UHGV virus genome: UHGV-1430452
Reading direction: 5' to 3' (one strand)
Source: a virus
DNA: 64,000 nucleotides
Shown here: positions 3,067 to 25,657 of the stretch, one piece after another
Layout of the letters: each line of letters begins with the position of its first letter
Position numbering within the stretch: the first letter of the stretch is position 1
Made by a program: the position numbers and the translations under genes
Notes under the pieces: generated by a model
What the model was told of the DNA's origin: nothing
Database searches by the model: none
The model's input: only the letters and a program-made list of their open reading frames with translations

Positions 3067-3321
3067 TTACTTGCAATGAAATCCCATTACTACTTTTTCT
3101 TCAGATTCATTTTCCTTATTTTCTTCCGGTTCAACTTTGATTTTCGCTTTCTCGCATACCTCCTGTGCGATTTCGTTACCTTCTTTAGCAGCAAACTTCA
3201 ATGTACCAAGGCCGATACCTGTAATAACTGCCTGAGCCATTTCCGCTGCAAACTTACCCATAGCAACTCCAAATGACACTGCAAATGCTGCTTTGCGTAA
3301 ATCTTTAAATTGTCCATTCAT
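3067..3321 (-). CDS. Small Gly/Ala-rich hydrophobic-helix protein with charged tail (84 aa)
   Basis: ORF track; AAAGGAGGAAC SD; box copy 2 upstream and a terminator downstream. Confidence 0.6.
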   Translation of the reverse strand: MNGQFKDLRKAAFAVSFGVAMGKFAAEMAQAVITGIGLGTLKFAAKEGNEIAQEVCEKAKIKVEPEENKENESEEKVVMGFHCK

Positions 3322-3357
3322 TTTAAGTTCCTCCTTTAAGAAATATAGACTTCATTC

Positions 3358-4946: not shown

Positions 4947-7900
4947 GGCAGCTCTACATCTTCATCATCGAATGGAATTTCCTCAGGAGATCCTTCCGGT
5001 ATGTTCATGAAGTCTGGTAAATGAGAATCTCTAAAAGGAGGTTCATGCCGATCTGAAGCATCCCAAGGCGGAGTACCAACATATGGATCGTCTGATATGA
5101 ACCACTCAGCGTCTCCGTATTGACCAATAGTTTCAAGAGCATCATCCACAAGCTTTCGATAATATGAACGATCAATATTTTCTTCATTTCCCGGAGACAT
5201 CATTAACTCGGATTCAAGCCAACGGAAACCAGTTGTTCCTGTAGCTGCATAATATTTACCGTTCTGTTCTCGCATCAATAGTCCTCCACCCTTTCCAGGC
5301 TTAACCGGACAAAATTGCCCAACTTTACCTACGAAATGATAGTCATGACCTTCAGCTATTAAATCGTTTAATCTTCGACACTCACTTTCGAAAGTTGTGT
5401 CCGATAACTTACCTTTCCTGTACTTATCTTCAAGTTTGGATAGTTCTTTTTCATACTCGGATACATCTGGAAGTTTTTCGTTCATATCCAAATATAAAGC
5501 AGATTTTACTGAGAATGCTTCGCACATATCTTTCAACTCAATTGGTTCTTTACTGAACAGTGTTTTAAATACATACGGAACTGCAAACTGTTTTCCAGTA
5601 GCTGTCCATTCTCCGGCATTCTTTCCATCTTTAAACCTAGCCACGTACACAGCATCATTTACTAAACAGAATTTTTCAAAGTTAGCCTCTGTTTCAAATG
5701 TATATCCGTATTCTTTACCGAATTTGGTTACGAAATCAATAATATCAGGAGTAGCATCGGGTATCTTTATGGAATCTGTCTTGATATGACAAACAGTAAA
5801 TCCTCGTTTCTGAACTTCTCTTTTCAATAATGTCATGAAGAGAGCTCCTCTTTTGGCAACAATGTTATCCTTATTTCTAGGATCTCTAAATTCATTTACG
5901 AAGCCAGCTGATGTCAAACCATAAATGGAATTGATAACAATCTTAAGTGCCTGCGCTAAATCAGCAGCCTGTTCTTCATTTAAGTATGGTTTCAACGCTC
6001 CACCTAATAATTGTCCAGCTGTTTCAAAGTCTTTATGCTTAATTGCAACACGAGCTTTTACAATATCCTCAAACCGTTTTGTATATTCTGGTCCAAATAG
6101 ACATTCGAATATAATACTGTGAGGATGCTGAGAAGCAATGTCTCCATCCCATACATTACCGTAATGCCCAGGTTCAGAGTAAACCCGACCGCCTTCTCCA
6201 ATGGCTTCGCCTAAATATGTTGATTTACCAAACTCAAAAGTATAGCCTTTAAAGAATGGAAGAATGCTATAACCTTCTGGAAGCTTTTCGCCAGGAACGT
6301 AAGATCGATATAATGGAAGACCCTCAGAATCAAATACTCTGAAATCATAATCATCTCCGAATTTAATTCTATATTCATCATAACGATCTGAGCTAACCGG
6401 TTCCGCCAAGTATCTATAGTTGAATACATTCTGCGGTTTTTTATTATTTCCAAATATAATTCTTTTAGAAAGAGTATTTGTCGTATCATTAACTGTAACG
6501 TTTGTAATATCATGTAAGAGTTTTACAAGATCAACCTGAATCTGTCTAGCAACAAAGTCTGCTTTTCTTGCATTGAATACAGCTTCCGTCGCAATGACAT
6601 CATTATCGCAATACTCAGCAACCTTTGCCCATAATTCTTCTGGAACTGGTTGATCCCAAGGAAGACCAAGCTCTTGATGATGAATACCCAGTTCAATCTC
6701 CCATTTCTTTAAACTCTGTTTCACAGTTGACATATCATATACATCAATGTAACCAAGATTATATGCCTCACCAAACATGCCATTATCACGGCTTCCCTTT
6801 GGAGCATTAATAATTCTTTGAGATAACTTATATATTTCCTCATTTGTGTATCCCATAAGTCTAGCATAAATGATATGTCTGTCGTATTTACGTCCATTAA
6901 AATCAACAAGTTTAAACTTTAGAAGATTTTCTATTTCTGCTGGTGTAGGATTAATTAATCTAACTACTGTTTTTCCTTCTCCAGCAAACTTATAGTTTAC
7001 CAAAAATAAATTTGGGAATACCTCACAATCATAGAATACAAGATCGTCAGTATCACCCTCATTACTTGTCTCTGAAGCCTCTTCACTCTTAAACGCCATC
7101 TGATTAACTAACTTCAAACACTCATCAGCCTGGTTACTACTACTCGCCGCCAAAGCAAATACAGCATTTTTCATATCAGACACATCATATCCAATACCAC
7201 TCTCATAAGCCTCATCCAAAAGTTTCTTAATCATTTGAATACTTGGAGCTGTGTTACCCATAATTTCTTTATTCAGATGTTTCTTAAGAACGGATCTCAA
7301 ATATTTCTCATTCTTAATACCATCAAAGTTAATCACATTTTTCACCTCTTTCAACGGAAGACCTGAGCTAATTGTACGAATAACAAGATTGACACACTTA
7401 GTAAGTTTTCTTCTAAGAGATGTTTTACCGGTAAATACCTTAATCTCGATATCCTCATCAAATATACGACTTAATTCACTCACATCACCGTTATAAATAT
7501 AATGAAGATGAATACCTCCACCACTTTTGCTTAACTCAGCATATGTTGGAGGCCATTTACTAGCTGCTTCAAGATTCTTCTCGAAACATTTATTACCATT
7601 CTCGTCCTTAATATCAAAGTCAATAACTACATGATTTTCAGGGACCTTGACGTAATGAAGTTTTGATGTGTCAAGTTCTGATAGGGTAGTTGAAACTTCA
7701 TCCCATGGCTTCGTCGGAGTTTCTTTTGAAGTAGCATATTGAGCTGGACAATCAGAACATTCTTTATCAAAAATAGACTCCTGTTCTTCAAATATAAGCC
7801 AGCTCTCAGTTTTCTCATCTCCAATAGGTTTCTCTGCTTTAACCTTTTTCTTCCCACCAATAGAGTCTTCGAAAATATCAGTCTTAAAACCGTCGTAATA

Positions 7901-11373: not shown

Positions 11374-12312
11374 TCAAATCATGTTGAGAATATCCCCATC
11401 CACATTGAAATCAAGAAGAATAGTTCTCTCATAACCGTTCACGAAGTTACGATTTGCCTCGTTGTAAGTGTTATAGATTCCGAAATCTACGAAATTATCA
11501 CCTACTGGATGTTTCTCGTCATAAATCCATCCAACAATCTGACCTGCCTGTGTACGCGGGATTCCGAGCATATCATATACTTCATTCAGGAACAGATGAC
11601 CTTTCGTTTTCAACATGTCATTTGCATAACGCTGCTGATCTTTAAGGAACATTAGATTGAATTCAGGATCTTTAGTCCATCCTGTACATCCATCATCGAA
11701 GAATTTAGCATAATCGCTGTAACTGTCGAGAGTTGCTACATTTGCTGTTTTCTTAACAGTAGTTTCTGTACCATCTTCATTTACAACAGTCTCTTCGATT
11801 TCTTTTGCTTTGATGTTGTACTTCAGTTCTTTATCAAGCTCTTCACCAAATCTCTCAATAACACGACCACGATATTCCTTGAAGCCTTTGTCAATAGTTG
11901 CATAAGCGGCTGCAAGTGCTAAGTTACGTTTACGAAGAATATGATGACCACTAAGAATAGCAGCGATAGAAACTGTTCCAAGGATTACTGCTGGAGCATA
12001 AAGTTTTGCTACCTTTACGGCTGTTTGAGTATACATGATAGTTAAATCTTTCTTACCATCTTCTTCTGTGTACTCTTTACCTTCTGGAACCATATCTGGA
12101 TTTTCCATAAATTCATGAATTTTCTCGATTTTTTCTTTTGGCTCAGCGAGCACCTCATCGAGTTTAGTAGTTGCTTTACATGCCATTACAGCAGAGCCAA
12201 CTACACCAACAATACCTGCGCCAACCAAGATTTCAGGGCTATGCTTTTTAAATTTAAAACCTACACGATGGAGGCTTCTAGTTACTGTGTTCATAATTTC
12301 TAATTTTGCCAT
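11374..12312 (-). CDS. Two-TM membrane protein, paralogue 1 of 3 (DUF6353-like; name from memory)
   Basis: It shares SPEIL.G.GI.G...SAV.A.KAT.K, a second TM, A..Y......Y..kV.e..GE and ..L...Y..LG......G...GW with 14387..15214 and 16675..17442. Confidence 0.6.
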   Translation of the reverse strand: MAKLEIMNTVTRSLHRVGFKFKKHSPEILVGAGIVGVVGSAVMACKATTKLDEVLAEPKEKIEKIHEFMENPDMVPEGKEYTEEDGKKDLTIMYTQTAVKVAKLYAPAVILGTVSIAAILSGHHILRKRNLALAAAYATIDKGFKEYRGRVIERFGEELDKELKYNIKAKEIEETVVNEDGTETTVKKTANVATLDSYSDYAKFFDDGCTGWTKDPEFNLMFLKDQQRYANDMLKTKGHLFLNEVYDMLGIPRTQAGQIVGWIYDEKHPVGDNFVDFGIYNTYNEANRNFVNGYERTILLDFNVDGDILNMI

Positions 12313-14386: not shown

Positions 14387-15214
14387 TTAATAGTAGCTAT
14401 CGAAACCATATTCCGGAGGCATCAGATGATCAATAACAATACACGGTTCATTATCTTCCGTAATTTGAGCACTATATCTCACATCGATTTTGCCTTTATC
14501 GATTCTCCAACCGATGCTATTACCAACTTCGGTATGCTTAAGACCAATTTCGTCATAGAAATCATTCAGAGAAATATACATCTCGTTACCGTTGATCATT
14601 CTCTCATTAAGAGTAAGAACAGCATTTTTAATCTTGTCGATATCCGATCTGAAATATCTGTCGGAATGACTGTCATAACACAACGTGTTACCTTTACCTG
14701 TCATGATAATCTGAGTGTCTGCAACCGGATGTTCTTCAACTTGCTTCTTAGCGACTTTATCTCTGATGTTATTTTCCTTCTTCTCTCCGATAGTCTCTAC
14801 CACTTTCTCTCTGTAGTCAGACAGTGCTGTTGTAGATAACTGATATGCTGTTGCCAATGCTGCGTTACGTCTTACATGTACGGAATTAGCACCGATAAGA
14901 CAAGCGACTGACGCAATGCCAGTGATAGCTGCTGGAATATAAGGTTTCCAAGCTGCTTTTACTGTTTCGACAGGTGTGAGATTTAAAGCGTTTCTTTCGT
15001 CTTCTTCTGTGAAAATACCGCCTTCATGAGCTTCTTTCTCTTTAAACTTCTTCTCTTCCTCGATTAACTCCATAGCTTTTGGTGTTGCTTTTACTGCAAG
15101 CACAACAGTAGATATCATACCTGCGATACCAATGCCAGTAAGAATTTCCGGACTGCGTTTTTTCATTACATATTTTGCAGTGTTTAAAAATTTTGTTACA
15201 TTTGGTTTGTTCAT
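14387..15214 (-). CDS. Two-TM membrane protein, paralogue 2 of 3 (DUF6353-like)
   Basis: Alignable by eye along its length with 11374..12312 and 16675..17442. Confidence 0.6.
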   Translation of the reverse strand: MNKPNVTKFLNTAKYVMKKRSPEILTGIGIAGMISTVVLAVKATPKAMELIEEEKKFKEKEAHEGGIFTEEDERNALNLTPVETVKAAWKPYIPAAITGIASVACLIGANSVHVRRNAALATAYQLSTTALSDYREKVVETIGEKKENNIRDKVAKKQVEEHPVADTQIIMTGKGNTLCYDSHSDRYFRSDIDKIKNAVLTLNERMINGNEMYISLNDFYDEIGLKHTEVGNSIGWRIDKGKIDVRYSAQITEDNEPCIVIDHLMPPEYGFDSYY

Positions 15215-15262: not shown

Positions 15263-15303
15263 ACTCGGGAAAATTTTGATCTTGAAAAAATAGAAATCGA
15301 AAA

Positions 15304-15375
15304 GAAACAGTGTAGGACTCGAACCCACAACCTACAGATATAAGTCTGTTGCTCTACCAATTGAGCTAACTGTTT
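15304..15375 (-). tRNA. tRNA, probably Ile(UAU), with a 6-nt anticodon loop (72 nt)
   Basis: Hand fold: acceptor AAACAGT/ACTGTTT, D arm GCTC-AATTGGTA-GAGC, anticodon stem ACAGA/TCTGT with loop CTTATA, variable loop AGGTT, T arm GTGGG-TTCGAGT-CCTAC, discriminator C. Confidence 0.7.
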
Positions 15376-15380
15376 CTTCT

Positions 15381-16674: not shown

Positions 16675-17442
16675 TCAATACTCTTCGTAATCAATGAACG
16701 GCTCTGTGAAATCTACAATATAACATTCAATACCGTCGTCCATTTCTACTTTTGTATGGTGGAAATATAGCCAACCATCCCAGTACATTTCATACATCTG
16801 AGCTGCGGACCAACCCATAAATTCACCGTAATCCTGTCGATCAATCTCTAGTAAATCGTAATAATCGTTTAAAGATGCACCACCGGATTGAGATAGCATT
16901 TTATTAATCTCATACTCTGCTCTCAATTGAGTTTCTTTCGTCACACGGTAATAACGTTTGGAATATTCATCGTAGAATAGTGTTTTGCCATCCTCGTATT
17001 CGTCGTCATATTCTTCTTTGTCTTCTTCCTCGTAATGGTCTTTTGCTACAGCAGCACGAATGAGTTTGTCTCCGTCTTCACCATATAACTTTTTAACTTT
17101 GTTTTTGTACTCTTTGTGAGTTTGGTCTAGTAAGGCATAAGCAGATGCGATGGCTGCTTGGGAATGTTTGTTTAATAGATTCGCGCCAAATATGCAAGCT
17201 AGGGTTCCTGTTCCAATCAATAAGGAAGGAATATATGTTGGTCCTGCTACTCGAATAGTCTCCCATTTTGTTAATTCATCTCCTTTCTCTTCTTCAGCTA
17301 GTTCAATAAGTTCCATTGCTTTCGGAGTAGCTTTAACCGCCATTACAGCTGTACCTACCACTCCGGCAGCTCCTAATACTGTTAATATAGTAGAGCTGTT
17401 TTTCTTTACGAATCTTTTCGAAACTGTTAGTAAGTCATTCAT
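16675..17442 (-). CDS. Two-TM membrane protein, paralogue 3 of 3 (DUF6353-like)
   Basis: ORF track 16675..17451; ATG at 17442 preferred over the GTG. It shares VKATPKAMELIE with paralogue 2. Confidence 0.6.
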   Translation of the reverse strand: MNDLLTVSKRFVKKNSSTILTVLGAAGVVGTAVMAVKATPKAMELIELAEEEKGDELTKWETIRVAGPTYIPSLLIGTGTLACIFGANLLNKHSQAAIASAYALLDQTHKEYKNKVKKLYGEDGDKLIRAAVAKDHYEEEDKEEYDDEYEDGKTLFYDEYSKRYYRVTKETQLRAEYEINKMLSQSGGASLNDYYDLLEIDRQDYGEFMGWSAAQMYEMYWDGWLYFHHTKVEMDDGIECYIVDFTEPFIDYEEY

Positions 17443-17472
17443 TTCCAGCACGCTCCTTGGCGATAAATTTGG

Positions 17473-19751: not shown

Positions 19752-19791
19752 TTAGGAAATATAAAAGAAGAAAAAAAAAGAAAAGACTATG

Positions 19792-19868
19792 GGAATAGCG
19801 CGGGATTCGAACCCACGACGTTGAGTTTCCTCTTATTCTTCCATTAGAACTAACCGTCTTAACTATTC
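19792..19868 (-). tRNA. tRNA-like element with canonical acceptor + T arm but a non-canonical body (77 nt; isotype undetermined, possibly a pseudo-tRNA)
   Basis: Acceptor GAATAGT/GCTATTC; T arm GTGGG-TTCGAAT-CCCGC. The 45-nt interior cannot be folded into D + anticodon arms. It pairs instead as GACGGTTAGTT/AACTCAACGTC around a purine-rich 20-nt loop. Confidence 0.5.
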
Positions 19869-19917
19869 CAGAGACTTCTTCCGATATATTGCTATACGGG
19901 AATTGTTCTCTTCTTTT

Positions 19918-19945
19918 CTATAATAGGAAATGTTTATTTAGCGAA
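19918..19945 (-). promoter_or_regulatory. Early-box copy 16 (upstream of the tRNA-like element, ~45-nt leader)
   Basis: Plus strand CTATAATAGGAAATGTTTATTTAGCGAA. Confidence 0.5.
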
Positions 19946-19988: not shown

Positions 19989-20357
19989 TTATTCGTTACC
20001 ATTGAGTTTCTCAATAGCTTCAACCTTCCTGCTGTCAAACATCGTAGAATTTACAATACTCATCACAGCTTTGTAATATGTTTTCGGCTGATCCTTCTTG
20101 AGCAACTCTATCGCCTGAACTTTACGACTATCAAACATGCTGCTGTTCATTATCGAAGCTACCGCACTGTCATAATCTGCTGTGCTAAATATATCCGCTA
20201 ATAAATCAACTTCATATGTGTCCTGTTTTCGTTTCTTTTCACGCAATACAACTGCCACAATTGGAATCGCAATACCAATCCCATTTGCTACATATTCTGT
20301 GATTTTCCATAAACTCTCTTTTGTTTTCTCGCTAGTTAAAACTTCTTTGATTTTCAT
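19989..20357 (-). CDS. N-terminally anchored protein with an internal duplication (122 aa)
   Basis: ORF track; repeat SIMNSSMFDSRKVQAIELL / SIVNSTMFDSRKVEAIEKL; box copy 17 upstream. Confidence 0.6.
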   Translation of the reverse strand: MKIKEVLTSEKTKESLWKITEYVANGIGIAIPIVAVVLREKKRKQDTYEVDLLADIFSTADYDSAVASIMNSSMFDSRKVQAIELLKKDQPKTYYKAVMSIVNSTMFDSRKVEAIEKLNGNE

Positions 20358-22401: not shown

Positions 22402-22821
22402 TCAATCCCTAGCATTCGATAGCAGCCAAAAGAACCTTCTGTACCTGTCGTAATACATGTCTCTACCGCACGGAATATCTAACTTTGACCGCAGGTAAGT
22501 ATACGATAAACCCTCTGTAACCGCTTTTAAAATGTAATCGTACAAATAACGGTCTGCATCCAAAGCTATCCTCTCGATTAGATCGATTTTCTCTTTATAA
22601 TAAGCTCTCAAGATTGCTCTCTTACCTGTTGGATCACCAGGCATATTGCTCGTTGGGATTTTCTCGATCATGGATAACGGTACAGAATGATCGTTAAAAG
22701 CAGCATAAGCACTCTTCCATATCGGATACTGTAAACAAAAATGTTTTAGTTCGTAATATCGATGTTTGCTAATCCAGTATTTGTTGTTCTCAGACAGCTC
22801 TGGACGTATTCTTGTTGCCAT
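22402..22821 (-). CDS. Putative phage transcription regulator (sigma region-4 / RinA-ArpU-like; tentative)
   Basis: 139 aa. It is the second gene (after the hand-called 56-aa ORF 22790..22960) downstream of cro in the early leftward operon. The C-terminal LSYTYLRSKLDIPCGRDMYYDRYRRFFWLL resembles HTH tails of small phage activators. No search was run. Confidence 0.35.
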   Translation of the reverse strand: MATRIRPELSENNKYWISKHRYYELKHFCLQYPIWKSAYAAFNDHSVPLSMIEKIPTSNMPGDPTGKRAILRAYYKEKIDLIERIALDADRYLYDYILKAVTEGLSYTYLRSKLDIPCGRDMYYDRYRRFFWLLSNARD

Positions 22822-23397: not shown

Positions 23398-23994
23398 ATG
23401 ACAATAGGACAAAAAATAAAAGAATTACGCAATCAACTTAATATGTCGGTGGATGATCTTGCTGTGAAACTGGGTAAGAACCGTGCGACTATCTACCGCT
23501 ATGAACGAGGAGATATCGAGAACCTCCCTCTCGATGTACTAGAACCATTAGCAAATGCTCTTGAGACCACACCTGGTTATTTAATGGGATGGGAAGAAAC
23601 TACGAAAAAGAAAGAGCCTTCAATTATCGATGAAGTTACCATGGGTGACGTTTTTAAAGCGTTACGTCTAGGAAGTAATTTATCGATAGAGGAATTTTCG
23701 CATGAGATTGGATTATCTGCCCAAGACATAAGCAATTATGAAGCAGGAAAGACTCCTATACCTGTAAATATAATTAATCTTGTTGCTGATTTCTTTGGCA
23801 TATCAATAGCGGAAATAGTTAAGGCACACAAAAACAGCGAAAATAGAACGCCTTCTGGTTTCGAAATGAAAAAGGAACGATTTGAACGTTTTAAAGTTTG
23901 GAATAAAGAGTTTGGACGAATACATTTTACTGATGAAGAAATCAATAAAATAATGGAATATACAAGGTTCTTACTTAGCCAAAGAAGACAGTAA
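23398..23994 (+). CDS. CI-like repressor with two XRE-type HTH domains and no S24 peptidase domain
   Basis: IGQKIKELRNQLNMSVDDLAVKLGKNRATIYRYERG and FKALRLGSNLSIEEFSHEIGLSAQDISNYEAG are both HTH_XRE-like. The C-terminus is short and lacks Ser/Lys protease motifs. Confidence 0.75.
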   Translation: MTIGQKIKELRNQLNMSVDDLAVKLGKNRATIYRYERGDIENLPLDVLEPLANALETTPGYLMGWEETTKKKEPSIIDEVTMGDVFKALRLGSNLSIEEFSHEIGLSAQDISNYEAGKTPIPVNIINLVADFFGISIAEIVKAHKNSENRTPSGFEMKKERFERFKVWNKEFGRIHFTDEEINKIMEYTRFLLSQRRQ

Positions 23995-24079
23995 GTCTAC
24001 ATAGGTTTACTCTATTTAAAGGAGGTGATGCCTGAATTCAGTTCATCGTAGAATTTACATCAAAGGAAAGGTGGAACCA

Positions 24080-25657
24080 ATGACAACGTTTGATATGAAC
24101 AACGCTGTAGACAATGCGTTCGGTATGGACGTATATGCTATCTATCTTCGGAAAAGTCGAGCCGATGTAGAAGCAGAAAAACTTGGAGAAGGAGAAACAC
24201 TAGCAAGGCATAGAAAGATACTAACAGAACTTGCTGCTAGAAAAGGATTGTATATCGGTAAGATTTACGAGGAAATTGTATCTGGTGAAACAATCGAAGC
24301 TAGACCTGAAATACAAAAACTGATAGAAGATTGTTATAAAGGGAAATATAGAGGAATCCTAATAGTAGAAGTTACTCGTCTATCTCGTGGTAATCAAGGA
24401 GACGCTCAAAAAATACTCGACTGTCTCAAATATTCGAATAGAAACAATGGTGTATTAGTTATCACTCCTACTAAGACTTATGACGTTGCACACAGCCAAG
24501 AAGACGAAGAATATATGGAGTTTGAATTGTTTATGTCTCGTCGAGAATATAAGATGATTCAAAAGCGTATGGATCGTGGCCGTAAACAAGCAGTCGTAGA
24601 AGGAAACTTCATGGGTAGTTACCGTCCCTATGGATATGACATCTTAAAAACCAAGACCGGACGAACACTTATACCGAATGAAGATGAAGCTCCTATCGTG
24701 AAAATGATTTACGAATGGACAGTTAACGATAATTTATCTCCTTTCAAGATAGCTGAGCGTTTAACTAATATGGGTGTTCCTACTTATTATGGTGAGAAGG
24801 ATTGGTCTAAAGAAACAGTTAAAACCATTTTGACGAATCAGACATACATGGGTAAAGTTCGTTGGAATGATCGAATGACTGTTAAGACTATGGTCGACGG
24901 AGAACTTAAAGCTACACGACCTCGTTCAAATCATTCCGATCACTTCATGCTATATGATGGAAAACATATGAAACACGCACTCGTCGACGAAGAAACATTC
25001 AAAGCAGCCTCCTCTCGCTTTCATAACGATAGGACAAGATCAAATCTAAAACTTGTTAATCCTCTTGCAGGACTTCTATTTTGTAAGAAATGTGGTAAAT
25101 CTATGGGTTATCAATCATATAGACATAAGAAAAACGGACCAATGGATCGATACAATCATAGACAGTCTGCTAATGGATGCAAGGTTAAGTCAGCAGTTGC
25201 TGAGGATGTTATAAAAGCTGTTATACATGCTTTGAAACTTTATATAGAAGATTTCGAATTTAAGTTAGACAACACTCCAGATGTTGACGAAAATTCAATC
25301 AATACGCAGCTCGAAGCTTTACAAAAAGAAATACGAAAATCCGAACGAAAACTTGCTAAGCTATTCGATTCTTGGGAAGATGAGAAGATAACAGATAATG
25401 AATTTGTTCAAAGGAAAGCCGTCCATAATCAGAAGATAGAAAATATAAAGAGGCAAATGGAAGAACTCGAATATTCGATACCAGAAAGAGAAGAATATGA
25501 GGATAAAATAATATTGCTGTCTGAAGCACTTGTCGCTATCACAGACGAATCGCTTGACGCAGATATTAAGAACGAGTATCTTAAAAGAATCATTGATAGA
25601 ATAGAGTTTAGTAGAGAGAATAACTCAGAGTTTATACTAGATATAGACTTATGCTAA
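24080..25657 (+). CDS. int: Large serine recombinase (integrase)
   Basis: YAIYLRKSRAD (catalytic Ser), VTRLSRG, a recombinase domain, the zinc ribbon CKKCGK...C and a C-terminal coiled coil. ATG at 24080 after AAAGGAAAGGTGG (the ORF-track GTG is at 24071). Confidence 0.85.
   Translation: MTTFDMNNAVDNAFGMDVYAIYLRKSRADVEAEKLGEGETLARHRKILTELAARKGLYIGKIYEEIVSGETIEARPEIQKLIEDCYKGKYRGILIVEVTRLSRGNQGDAQKILDCLKYSNRNNGVLVITPTKTYDVAHSQEDEEYMEFELFMSRREYKMIQKRMDRGRKQAVVEGNFMGSYRPYGYDILKTKTGRTLIPNEDEAPIVKMIYEWTVNDNLSPFKIAERLTNMGVPTYYGEKDWSKETVKTILTNQTYMGKVRWNDRMTVKTMVDGELKATRPRSNHSDHFMLYDGKHMKHALVDEETFKAASSRFHNDRTRSNLKLVNPLAGLLFCKKCGKSMGYQSYRHKKNGPMDRYNHRQSANGCKVKSAVAEDVIKAVIHALKLYIEDFEFKLDNTPDVDENSINTQLEALQKEIRKSERKLAKLFDSWEDEKITDNEFVQRKAVHNQKIENIKRQMEELEYSIPEREEYEDKIILLSEALVAITDESLDADIKNEYLKRIIDRIEFSRENNSEFILDIDLC

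Follow-up and report, generated by a model that had tools for sequence, protein, structure and literature searches.

The 64,000-nucleotide (nt) stretch of virus genome UHGV-1430452 analysed here, called the window throughout, carries on its minus strand, from 19868 down to 19792, an element of approximately 77 nt that is derived from transfer RNA (tRNA) and is unable to decode. In our judgement there is about an even chance that a temperate Lachnospiraceae/Clostridia phage expresses this element as a non-decoding "top-half" mimic of tRNA that acts in trans. The RNA from 19869 to 19791 reads, 5′ to 3′, GGAAUAGUUAAGACGGUUAGUUCUAAUGGAAGAAUAAGAGGAAACUCAACGUCGUGGGUUCGAAUCCCGCGCUAUUCCC. It retains a 7-base-pair (bp) acceptor stem, a T arm, a D arm with G18-G19 and A14/A21, and a variable region that ends in GUC. 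Two parts are altered: the anticodon arm has become a mini-hairpin of 3–4 bp, and a 9-nt insertion is present that is able to pair with the variable region as a fifth helix. Since the anticodon has been lost and the upper half of the tRNA kept, the RNA is probably a tRNA look-alike rather than a decoder. The acceptor-T minihelix and the elbow formed by the D and T loops are the parts of tRNA that are read by tRNA-processing proteins and by many tRNA-binding proteins.

A tRNA-derived element outside the standard cloverleaf

A first-pass annotation of the window had noticed at this location an acceptor stem of 7 bp that stacks on a T arm of canonical form, and had called the element tRNA-derived. 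Both observations hold, on the minus strand: GAAUAGU (19868..19862) pairs with GCUAUUC (19799..19793), and this stem abuts the T arm GUGGG-UUCGAAU-CCCGC (19816..19800). The derivation from tRNA is borne out not only by this minihelix but also by a D arm and by a lineage of sibling tRNA-like genes. The annotation was also right that the element is not a standard cloverleaf, as neither ARAGORN at default settings nor Rfam at its gathering threshold made a call at this place. In the window as a whole, default ARAGORN and thresholded Rfam called a single tRNA, at 15303-15376, and the intron, transfer-messenger RNA (tmRNA; even relaxed) and mitochondrial modes of ARAGORN gave nothing credible at the element. 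A cloverleaf drawn in another register with relaxed ARAGORN settings was rejected; its stems are mismatched and it leaves a covarying pair (20:33) unexplained. Because the standard and relaxed runs gave no credible cloverleaf, the core observation of a perfect acceptor/T minihelix outside any such fold stands, and the element is real, tRNA-derived and separate from the standard cloverleaf tRNA.

Below these thresholds the models recognise parts of the element. In the E-value mode of Rfam the top match for the window copy was tRNA-Sec with 19.2 bits (gathering score 47), in an alignment that covers the acceptor and T arm only, while a rival match of the same clan scored lower; in the same scan no Y-RNA family matched. 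The best-scoring copy with the Rfam tRNA model is a homologue (locus L096), which reaches 25.9 bits where the gathering score is 29, and here the model aligned U8-A9, the D arm, A26, a short anticodon stem, a GUC-ending variable loop and the T arm.

Five-helix fold and covariation

RNAfold gave one dominant structure (z = -2.9), whose minimum-free-energy fold equals the centroid, and the RNAalifold consensus of the homologues agrees with this five-helix fold. It runs from the acceptor stem through three unpaired nucleotides into a 4-bp helix (GACG/CGUC), here named stem X, which encloses two hairpins and is followed by the T arm. In the alignment of nine sequences 97.8% of the cells in paired positions are paired, against only 37–56% when the partners are slid. 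Double compensatory changes are found at seven pairs of the acceptor, D and T stems, a number reached by none of 500 shuffles (0/500): 1:78 and 2:77 in the acceptor, 20:33 (UA/UG/CG) and 21:32 in the D-arm hairpin, and 55:71, 57:69 and 58:68 in the T stem. The covariation that the first-pass annotation had proposed to look for in related phages is thus present, in the acceptor, D and T stems of the five-helix fold and not for the long imperfect hairpin which the annotation took as the only extensive pairing. The folds keep the outer 4 bp of that hairpin (GACG/CGUC) and place two hairpins inside; the long-hairpin fold was rejected, with 78.8% of its helix paired and its inner part breaking exactly where the homologues differ.

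Variation is distributed unevenly over the molecule. In an alignment of seven sequences, 12 of the 48 paired columns vary and the pair is retained in nearly all of them, whereas approximately 21 of the 24 unpaired columns outside the mini-hairpin loop are invariant. Near-invariant unpaired bases together with variation that keeps the pairs suggest that specific bases make contacts, whether within the tertiary fold or to a protein. The wobble pairs (G.U as well as U.G) and, at one position, the path from UA through UG to CG indicate selection on the minus-strand RNA, and such wobble-preserving, strand-specific compensation argues against two other readings of the element, namely a pseudogene and a DNA-level site.

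In the first of these the element is a decaying tRNA pseudogene or a functionless relic that hitch-hikes with its surroundings. Its absence from the calls of standard predictors, the lack of an anticodon, acceptor-stem mismatches in some copies, and its rarity (nine variants from IMG/VR, the Joint Genome Institute (JGI) metagenomes and neighbour-gene look-ups, and none in the GTDB representative genomes) would all suit a relic. However, the seven compensatory pairs and the near-invariant unpaired bases are not what decay leaves behind, the element is conserved together with its own promoter-like box and a covarying leader hairpin, and it has been retained in at least five contexts whose flanks cannot be aligned. 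The pseudogene reading is already disfavoured on the sequences, and we consider it improbable. The first-pass annotation had offered three options: a tRNA mimic or a structured small RNA (sRNA) fits these data, while simple decay is disfavoured by the compensatory changes and the near-invariant unpaired bases.

The individual parts of the fold are as follows. The acceptor 5′ strand (19862..19868, minus strand as for all features of the element) pairs with 19793..19799 and contains two of the double compensatory pairs (G-C to A-U and A-U to G-C). Its 3′ strand and the discriminator at 19792 together occupy 19792..19799; in the alignment of nine the discriminator varies between C, A and U, and CCA is not conserved in the gene copies. 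The 1:72 pair is G-C, A-U or G.A, pair 3:70 is A-U so that no G3.U70 is present, and there is no long variable arm. A preceding G19869 pairs inconsistently: the eighth pair G19869:C19792, similar to G-1:C73, occurs in four of the nine copies (window, L088, L175, L084), is replaced by G.A in L092 and L096, and is thus not conserved.

An 11-nt connector, UAAGACGGUUA (19851..19861), joins the acceptor to the D stem. It is best described as U8-A9 duplicated around a 9-nt insertion, AGACGGUUA, which lies between U8-A9 and the D stem and is flanked by a UUA repeat. This insertion between positions 9 and 10 is the extra material of the element. The connector with its insertion is nearly invariant across all nine sequences, with one exception, an A-to-G change in L160, and the Rfam tRNA model misplaces part of it by reading AGACGGU as the acceptor 5′ strand. 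Stem X (GACG 19858..19855 : CGUC 19820..19817) is predicted by both the minimum-free-energy fold and RNAalifold.

The first-pass annotation had held that the 45 internal nucleotides cannot form a D arm and that both the D and the anticodon arms are replaced. This is correct for the anticodon arm, which is ablated to a mini-hairpin, and incorrect for the D arm, since the first inner hairpin is D-arm-like, carries canonical loop bases and contains two covarying pairs. The D arm GUUCU-AAUGGA-AGAAU (19835..19850), in which pairs 20:33 and 21:32 covary, is aligned as such by Rfam in L096. Its loop A-A-Y-G-G-A corresponds to A14 R15 Y16 G18 G19 A21, and the sole variable base is U/C at the Y16 position. 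At the place of the anticodon arm lies the mini-hairpin GAG-GAAA-CUC (19823..19832), with an invariant GAG/CUC stem, a fourth G-C pair in three sequences, and loops of 4–6 nt (GAAA, AAAA, GUAAAA, GUAAUA, ACAG, GGAA); as read from these sequences there is no 7-nt anticodon loop and no anticodon is possible. It is followed by the nearly invariant AACGUC (19817..19822), which shares its GUC ending with class I variable loops and of which CGUC forms the 3′ strand of stem X. The T arm (19800..19816) has three double compensatory pairs and an invariant loop, and matches the tRNA, tRNA-Sec and tmRNA models.

A discrete family in unrelated genomic contexts

Homologues were collected by pattern scans of IMG/VR and the JGI metagenomes, from the homologues of a neighbouring gene, and with a covariance model, R1. 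Nine distinct sequences, from contigs of gut phages and prophages, were obtained: the window copy (identical to L087), L088, L092, L175, L084, L090, L096, L160 and L178. With R1 these score 93–105 bits, while all other tRNA-like genes in approximately 180 related loci score at most 43 bits; the nine therefore form a discrete family, and the element is well beyond chance. The identity between copies is 82–99%. A pattern scan of the GTDB representative genomes for divergent copies found none, a looser stem-X pattern in IMG/VR gave a chance match only, and 8 of the 13 metagenome pattern matches are unrelated to the element. In GenBank phages, near-identity and distant DNA searches returned as sole match the neighbouring 119-amino-acid (aa) gene in phage MT835485, which has a homologue of this gene and lacks the element.

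The window derives from a tailed phage with terminase, portal, prohead protease, tail and lysin genes and a minus-strand early region. A helix-turn-helix (HTH; Cro/C1-type) repressor gene and a gene for a 528-aa large serine recombinase (24071-25657) lie in region 23398-25657 on the plus strand, opposite to nearly all other genes of the window, and from these two genes the phage is taken to be temperate. Related prophages reside in Lachnospiraceae, Oscillospiraceae and other Clostridia; Hungatella hathewayi, Enterocloster lavalensis, [Ruminococcus] torques and Roseburia hominis are among the named hosts.

The box, the leader hairpin and the element travel as one cassette that is found in at least five genomic contexts, and the flanks cannot be aligned between contexts. 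In the window, L088 and L175 it lies between a 122-aa gene and the 119-aa gene; in L084, between a lysin gene and a convergent integrase gene; in L160 and L178-L180, after a lysin gene and before a gene of the p122 family, with the integrase gene further on; in L096, after a p122-family gene and a 72-aa gene; and in L090, after holin genes. The sites in the window, L175 and L096 belong to the early region. The p122-family neighbour is only approximately 42% identical between the window and L096, whereas the copies of the element are 82–99% identical.

The p122 family (100–123 aa) is the commonest neighbour of the element in the contexts seen, although homologues without the element exist too (L169-L174). 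Its members, at 19989-20357 (minus strand) in the window, 996-1298 in L096, 1298-1612 in L160 and 1672-1992 in L178, have an N-terminal transmembrane (TM) helix, and a motif resembling xxMFDSRKVxAIExL is present in them as two repeats.

Some of these contexts bring to mind a site that acts at the level of DNA, such as attP or another recombination site by the serine integrase gene, given that a gene for a large serine recombinase lies within approximately 0.1–1.3 kilobases (kb) of the element in L084, L160 and L178. In the window, however, 4.2 kb and several genes separate it from the recombinase gene, and the G.U wobble kept on one strand only is a mark of RNA-level selection, so that a DNA site is in our view scarcely credible.

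An apparently self-contained transcription unit

The first-pass annotation had also described a promoter-like box, a leader and a run of U residues, and from these an element apparently transcribed on purpose; all three features are found, and their joint conservation with the element in other phages supports what is apparently a separate transcription unit. The box, TCGCTAAATAAACATTTCCTATTATAG (19944..19918, that is 19918..19944 on the minus strand), is the element's own copy of a sequence repeated in the early region, TCGCGAAAATTACA-N5-CTATTATGRG, of which a regular-expression census counted at least 11 minus-strand copies between 22352 and 4625. Most copies have a ribosome-binding site (RBS) and a gene next downstream, and the box also stands upstream of the homologues in L088, L092, L175, L084, L096, L160 and L178. 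It is unlike the sigma-70 consensus, with a spacing of approximately 13–14 nt between TCGCGA and TATTAT, and it may be read by a phage factor, for example the 139-aa protein encoded at 22402-22821 (phrog_11237).

Between the box and the element lies the leader hairpin UUCC-C-GUAUA-GCAA-UAUAU-C-GGAA (19879..19902, minus strand), which contains an invariant C.C mismatch. Three of its pairs show compensatory double changes in the RNAalifold consensus of six homologues, and it is kept in eight of the nine homologues including L175 and L178, being absent only from L090. In L090 its place is taken by an aberrant tRNA-like RNA of approximately 120 nt (945-823, minus strand), located 20 nt upstream of the element copy. 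This RNA has a closing stem GAGAGAAA/UUUCUCUC and a canonical T arm GGUGG-UUCGAGU-CCACC, has AAGAGGAAACUC in common with the element, and was recognised neither by ARAGORN nor by Rfam.

On the 3′ side, a U-rich tract read from the sequence, UCUUUUCUUUUUUUUUCUUCUUUU (approximately 19785..19762; 19762..19785, minus strand), is a candidate terminator. A U-run directly abuts the acceptor stem in L084, L090 and L160, and approximately 100 nt intervene in L178. The neighbours are independently equipped, as the upstream 122-aa gene has its own terminator and the downstream 119-aa gene has its own conserved upstream motif, retained in relatives without the element. With its own box, leader and U-tract between such neighbours, the element is a self-contained cassette.

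The same organisation can be read in another way, in which the tRNA-like fold is a cis-acting module, that is an RNase P/RNase Z cleavage signal, a terminator or an insulator between cassettes, and the functional product is the leader hairpin or the neighbouring messenger RNA (mRNA). The early region is indeed built of cassettes of box, structured RNA, U-run, RBS and gene; sibling tRNA-like genes lie approximately 25–120 nt upstream of DUF6353 genes, in the window with no box between; the U-run directly follows the closing stem in L084, L090 and L160; and the leader hairpin is itself conserved and covarying. But L084 has no same-strand gene downstream of the element, its integrase gene being convergent, and the upstream motif of the 119-aa gene persists in relatives that lack the element. 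Moreover, a mere cleavage or termination signal needs no invariant insertion, no invariant linkers and no tertiary bases in the D loop. We regard a cis-acting module as unlikely.

An element with an apparent promoter and a terminator-like tail could also be a base-pairing sRNA on a tRNA scaffold, in which the single-stranded UAAGACGGUUA or the D loop pairs with phage or host mRNA and the tRNA shape provides RNase P maturation and stability. The C4 RNAs of phages P1 and P7 and the CI RNA of P4 are precedents for sRNAs with a tRNA-like shape, RNase P maturation and stability. An invariant stretch of approximately 11 nt is typical of an sRNA seed, and genes expressed in the lysogen typically lie where the element does in L084, L160 and L178, between lysis and integrase genes. 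However, the 11-mer with one mismatch allowed has 1 non-self match in the 64-kb window against 1.0 expected, all 9-mers have approximately 55 non-self matches in the window against 41 ± 10 in shuffles, so that no signal rises above chance, and the predicted stem X takes up four bases of the candidate seed. A base-pairing role seems to us rather doubtful.

Origin from sibling tRNA-like genes

The same phages carry many sibling tRNA-like genes, a wider set that is spread over prophages of Lachnospiraceae and Oscillospiraceae. These genes start directly after a box, have normal D and T arms and end with a U-run. Their acceptors are conserved (GAAACAG or GAAUAG-N), and their anticodon arms are hypervariable, with 6-nt loops, 3-nt loops, 8-bp stems with a GAAA cap, and long hairpins. 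ARAGORN made 33 calls on 60 loci, in 22 of which the anticodon was unassignable. Examples among the siblings of L003-L081 and L099-L156 are those at 2062-2138 and 3689-3762 in L016, 3861-3938 in L060, 3384-3478 in L028 and 5041-5111 in L142. The one tRNA called in the window, at 15303-15376 (minus strand), is such a sibling: it scores 62 bits as an Rfam tRNA, has the 6-nt anticodon loop CUUAUA, and is reported by ARAGORN as 'tRNA-???'. It follows directly after a box at 15406-15382, and a DUF6353 gene (15214-14387) begins 89 nt downstream with no box between.

A usual distance of approximately 25–120 nt separates the siblings from the DUF6353 genes downstream. Three DUF6353 paralogues are encoded on the minus strand of the window (14387-15214, 16675-17451 and 11374-12312); each has two N-terminal hydrophobic segments, and they are therefore probably membrane proteins with two TM helices. 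No PDB, PADLOC or functional PHROG match was found for them.

Several siblings are close to the element. In L157 and L162 the acceptor is the same (GAATAGT/ACTATTC), and the D arm, GTTT-AATGGTA-AAGC, is similar; those in L159, L164 and L167 have the near-identical acceptor GAATAGA/TCTATTC; and in all five just UA precedes the D stem. The same acceptor, the similar D arm and the UA-only connector of the siblings make the element a derived member of this lineage. Read against them, its derived traits are the gained 9-nt insertion and leader hairpin and the minimised anticodon arm. The common features are the box promoter, the acceptor GAAUAG-N (same or near-identical), similar D and T arms, the U-run and a changeable anticodon arm. 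The siblings differ by their 2-nt connector, a full-length or longer anticodon arm, scores of at most 43 bits with R1, and transcription that apparently starts at the acceptor stem without a leader hairpin.

The siblings at 7135-7206 (minus strand) in L159, 2837-2908 (plus) in L164 and 3260-3331 (plus) in L167 have a near-identical body with normal 7-nt loops, and on this shared body they bear three different anticodons, UUC (Glu), UAC (Val) and CGU (Thr), as if the anticodon had been switched while the body stayed fixed.

Such relatives give some footing to a functional aminoacylated RNA, which would serve as an unusual decoder or donate an amino acid in a reaction outside the ribosome. In its favour are the intact acceptor-T minihelix, a G-1:C73-like pair in four of nine copies, and the normal 7-nt loops, with UUC, UAC or CGU as anticodon, of some siblings whose acceptor is nearly the same. 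The element itself, however, has no anticodon loop, its discriminator (C/A/U) and 1:72 pair vary, it has neither G3.U70 nor a long variable arm, and the G-1 pairing is not conserved (L092, L096). With a variable discriminator and 1:72 pair, no G3.U70 and no conserved G-1:C73, consistent aminoacylation is unlikely, and we would place an aminoacylated function among the very improbable readings.

Comparison with known tRNA-like RNAs

The element fails the defining features of tRNA, tRNA-Sec, tmRNA and Y RNA. With the canonical tRNA (RF00005) it has in common the acceptor, the UUCGAAU T loop, G53-C61, the D-loop bases A14/R15/Y16/G18/G19/A21, the GUC end of the variable region and a length of approximately 77 nt. 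It differs by a 3–4 bp stem with a 4–6 nt loop instead of the 5-bp/7-nt anticodon arm, by a connector of 11 nt instead of 2, by its sub-threshold ARAGORN and Rfam results, and by a discriminator that is not conserved. The tRNA-Sec (RF01852) is marked by a 13-bp acceptor/T helix (8/5 or 9/4), a UCA anticodon, a long variable arm and a 6-bp D stem. An assignment to tRNA-Sec, or to a tRNA-His-like type with an 8-bp acceptor (G-1:C73), was rejected, as the eighth pair is not conserved, there is no anticodon, and the score is 19.2 bits against 47. The tRNA-like domain of tmRNA likewise combines an acceptor and a T arm without an anticodon, and the T arm of the element matches the tmRNA model locally; however, the element has no G3.U70, no tag open reading frame (ORF) and no pseudoknots, possesses a real D stem, and measures approximately 77 nt rather than approximately 350 nt.

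YrlA RNAs of bacteria and phages also contain tRNA-like modules; that of M. smegmatis is cut by RNase P and has CCA added to it, and that of S. Typhimurium carries tRNA-type modifications (PMC4201824). YrlA and Y RNAs resemble the element in being non-decoding, in their T-arm, D-arm and acceptor-like features, and in their occurrence in phages. In Y RNAs, though, the ends of the RNA form the Ro60-binding stem and a Ro60 (TROVE) gene is adjacent, whereas the ends of the element form an acceptor stem.

Soil metagenomes have yielded irregular, allo-tRNA-like sequences (Mukai et al., 2017, reviewed in PMC7609411). These are non-canonical tRNA-like genes, and some of them carry an additional loop that separates the acceptor stem from the D stem, a G-1 base and possible five-stem junctions. 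They were thought to be non-translational and linked to mobile elements or toxin-antitoxin systems (PMC7609411). They differ from the element in an 8/4 or 9/3 acceptor/T geometry, long variable arms, anticodon arms, and another habitat and lineage. Those with the additional acceptor/D loop are the nearest oddities described.

Phage tRNAs that escape host nucleases or stand in for the tRNAs these cut (PMC10264068, eLife 2023; PMC11464382, Nature 2024; PMC11555353, Nat Commun 2024) are likewise phage-borne tRNA genes with an anticodon region under unusual selection. They are, however, working decoders with altered anticodon loops, whereas the element has no anticodon loop and therefore cannot replace a depleted tRNA. 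In our literature searches no description of the element or of the sibling group was found.

Proposed function

In the scenario that we favour as the most economical one, a tRNA mimic acting in trans, the RNA would be transcribed from its own box promoter with a 45-nt leader bearing the conserved hairpin. Its maturation into a stable L-shaped molecule might then, as for tRNA and as shown for the tRNA-like modules of YrlA (PMC4201824), fall to RNase P together with a 3′ nuclease and the CCA-adding enzyme. As a decoy, a sponge or a cofactor this molecule could occupy in trans some protein by which the top half of tRNA is recognised, and the invariant insertion together with stem X would constitute the specificity module.

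Several points weigh against this scenario. The family is small, and because its nine sequences are at least 82% identical, recent spread could explain part of the conservation. Stem X, the GAG/CUC stem and the linkers are invariant, so that stem X and the mini-hairpin stem stand as predicted pairings. The acceptor is imperfect in two copies, with a G.A mismatch at pair 1:72 in L175 and an A.C in the acceptor stem of L096. Expression of the element is suggested by its sequence context, and since the U-run begins 7 nt past the stem in the window, termination there would be non-canonical; a terminator scan of the window did not call the 3′ end of the element. No gene for tRNA metabolism, Ro60 (TROVE) or known defence was found among approximately 47 open reading frames (ORFs) of the window (Pfam), in the ORFs scanned against PADLOC or next to the homologues, and a search for a partner enzyme among the neighbours (Pfam, PHROGs, PADLOC, PDB sequences) gave only families of unknown function, so that neither search turned up a protein partner.

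A broader and more speculative proposal, which we hold to be possible but on balance unlikely, is that temperate phages of gut Clostridia keep diversified, promoter-driven tRNA mimics whose top half is under selection, and that the element is a specialised five-helix decoy or inhibitor of a tRNA-directed system of the host or a rival phage, or a redirector of a tRNA-processing enzyme. If so, it would be a non-decoding, RNA-based factor of counter-defence or conflict, for example against an effector that reads the acceptor or the elbow. Phage tRNA genes are now seen mainly as replacements for tRNAs destroyed by host nucleases. An RNA that cannot decode, yet is under structural selection and has its own promoter-like box, would extend the use of the tRNA shape by phages to pure mimicry. 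A tRNA minus its anticodon arm plus a fifth helix is also a compact natural case that is useful for asking what the top half alone recruits, and the siblings, with one body and hypervariable anticodon arms, suggest an unexplored RNA layer in the prophages of abundant human gut bacteria.

Further structured leaders in the early region

Downstream of two other boxes of the window, at 18019-17995 and approximately 17590, a structured leader and then a UCUUUUUAUUUUU tract precede the next gene in each case. The leaders lie on the minus strand at 17993-17846 and approximately 17565-17475, and the first, of approximately 150 nt, is closed by GAGAGAA/UUCUCU. Neither has an Rfam match, and they could be attenuator-like leaders or further sRNAs.

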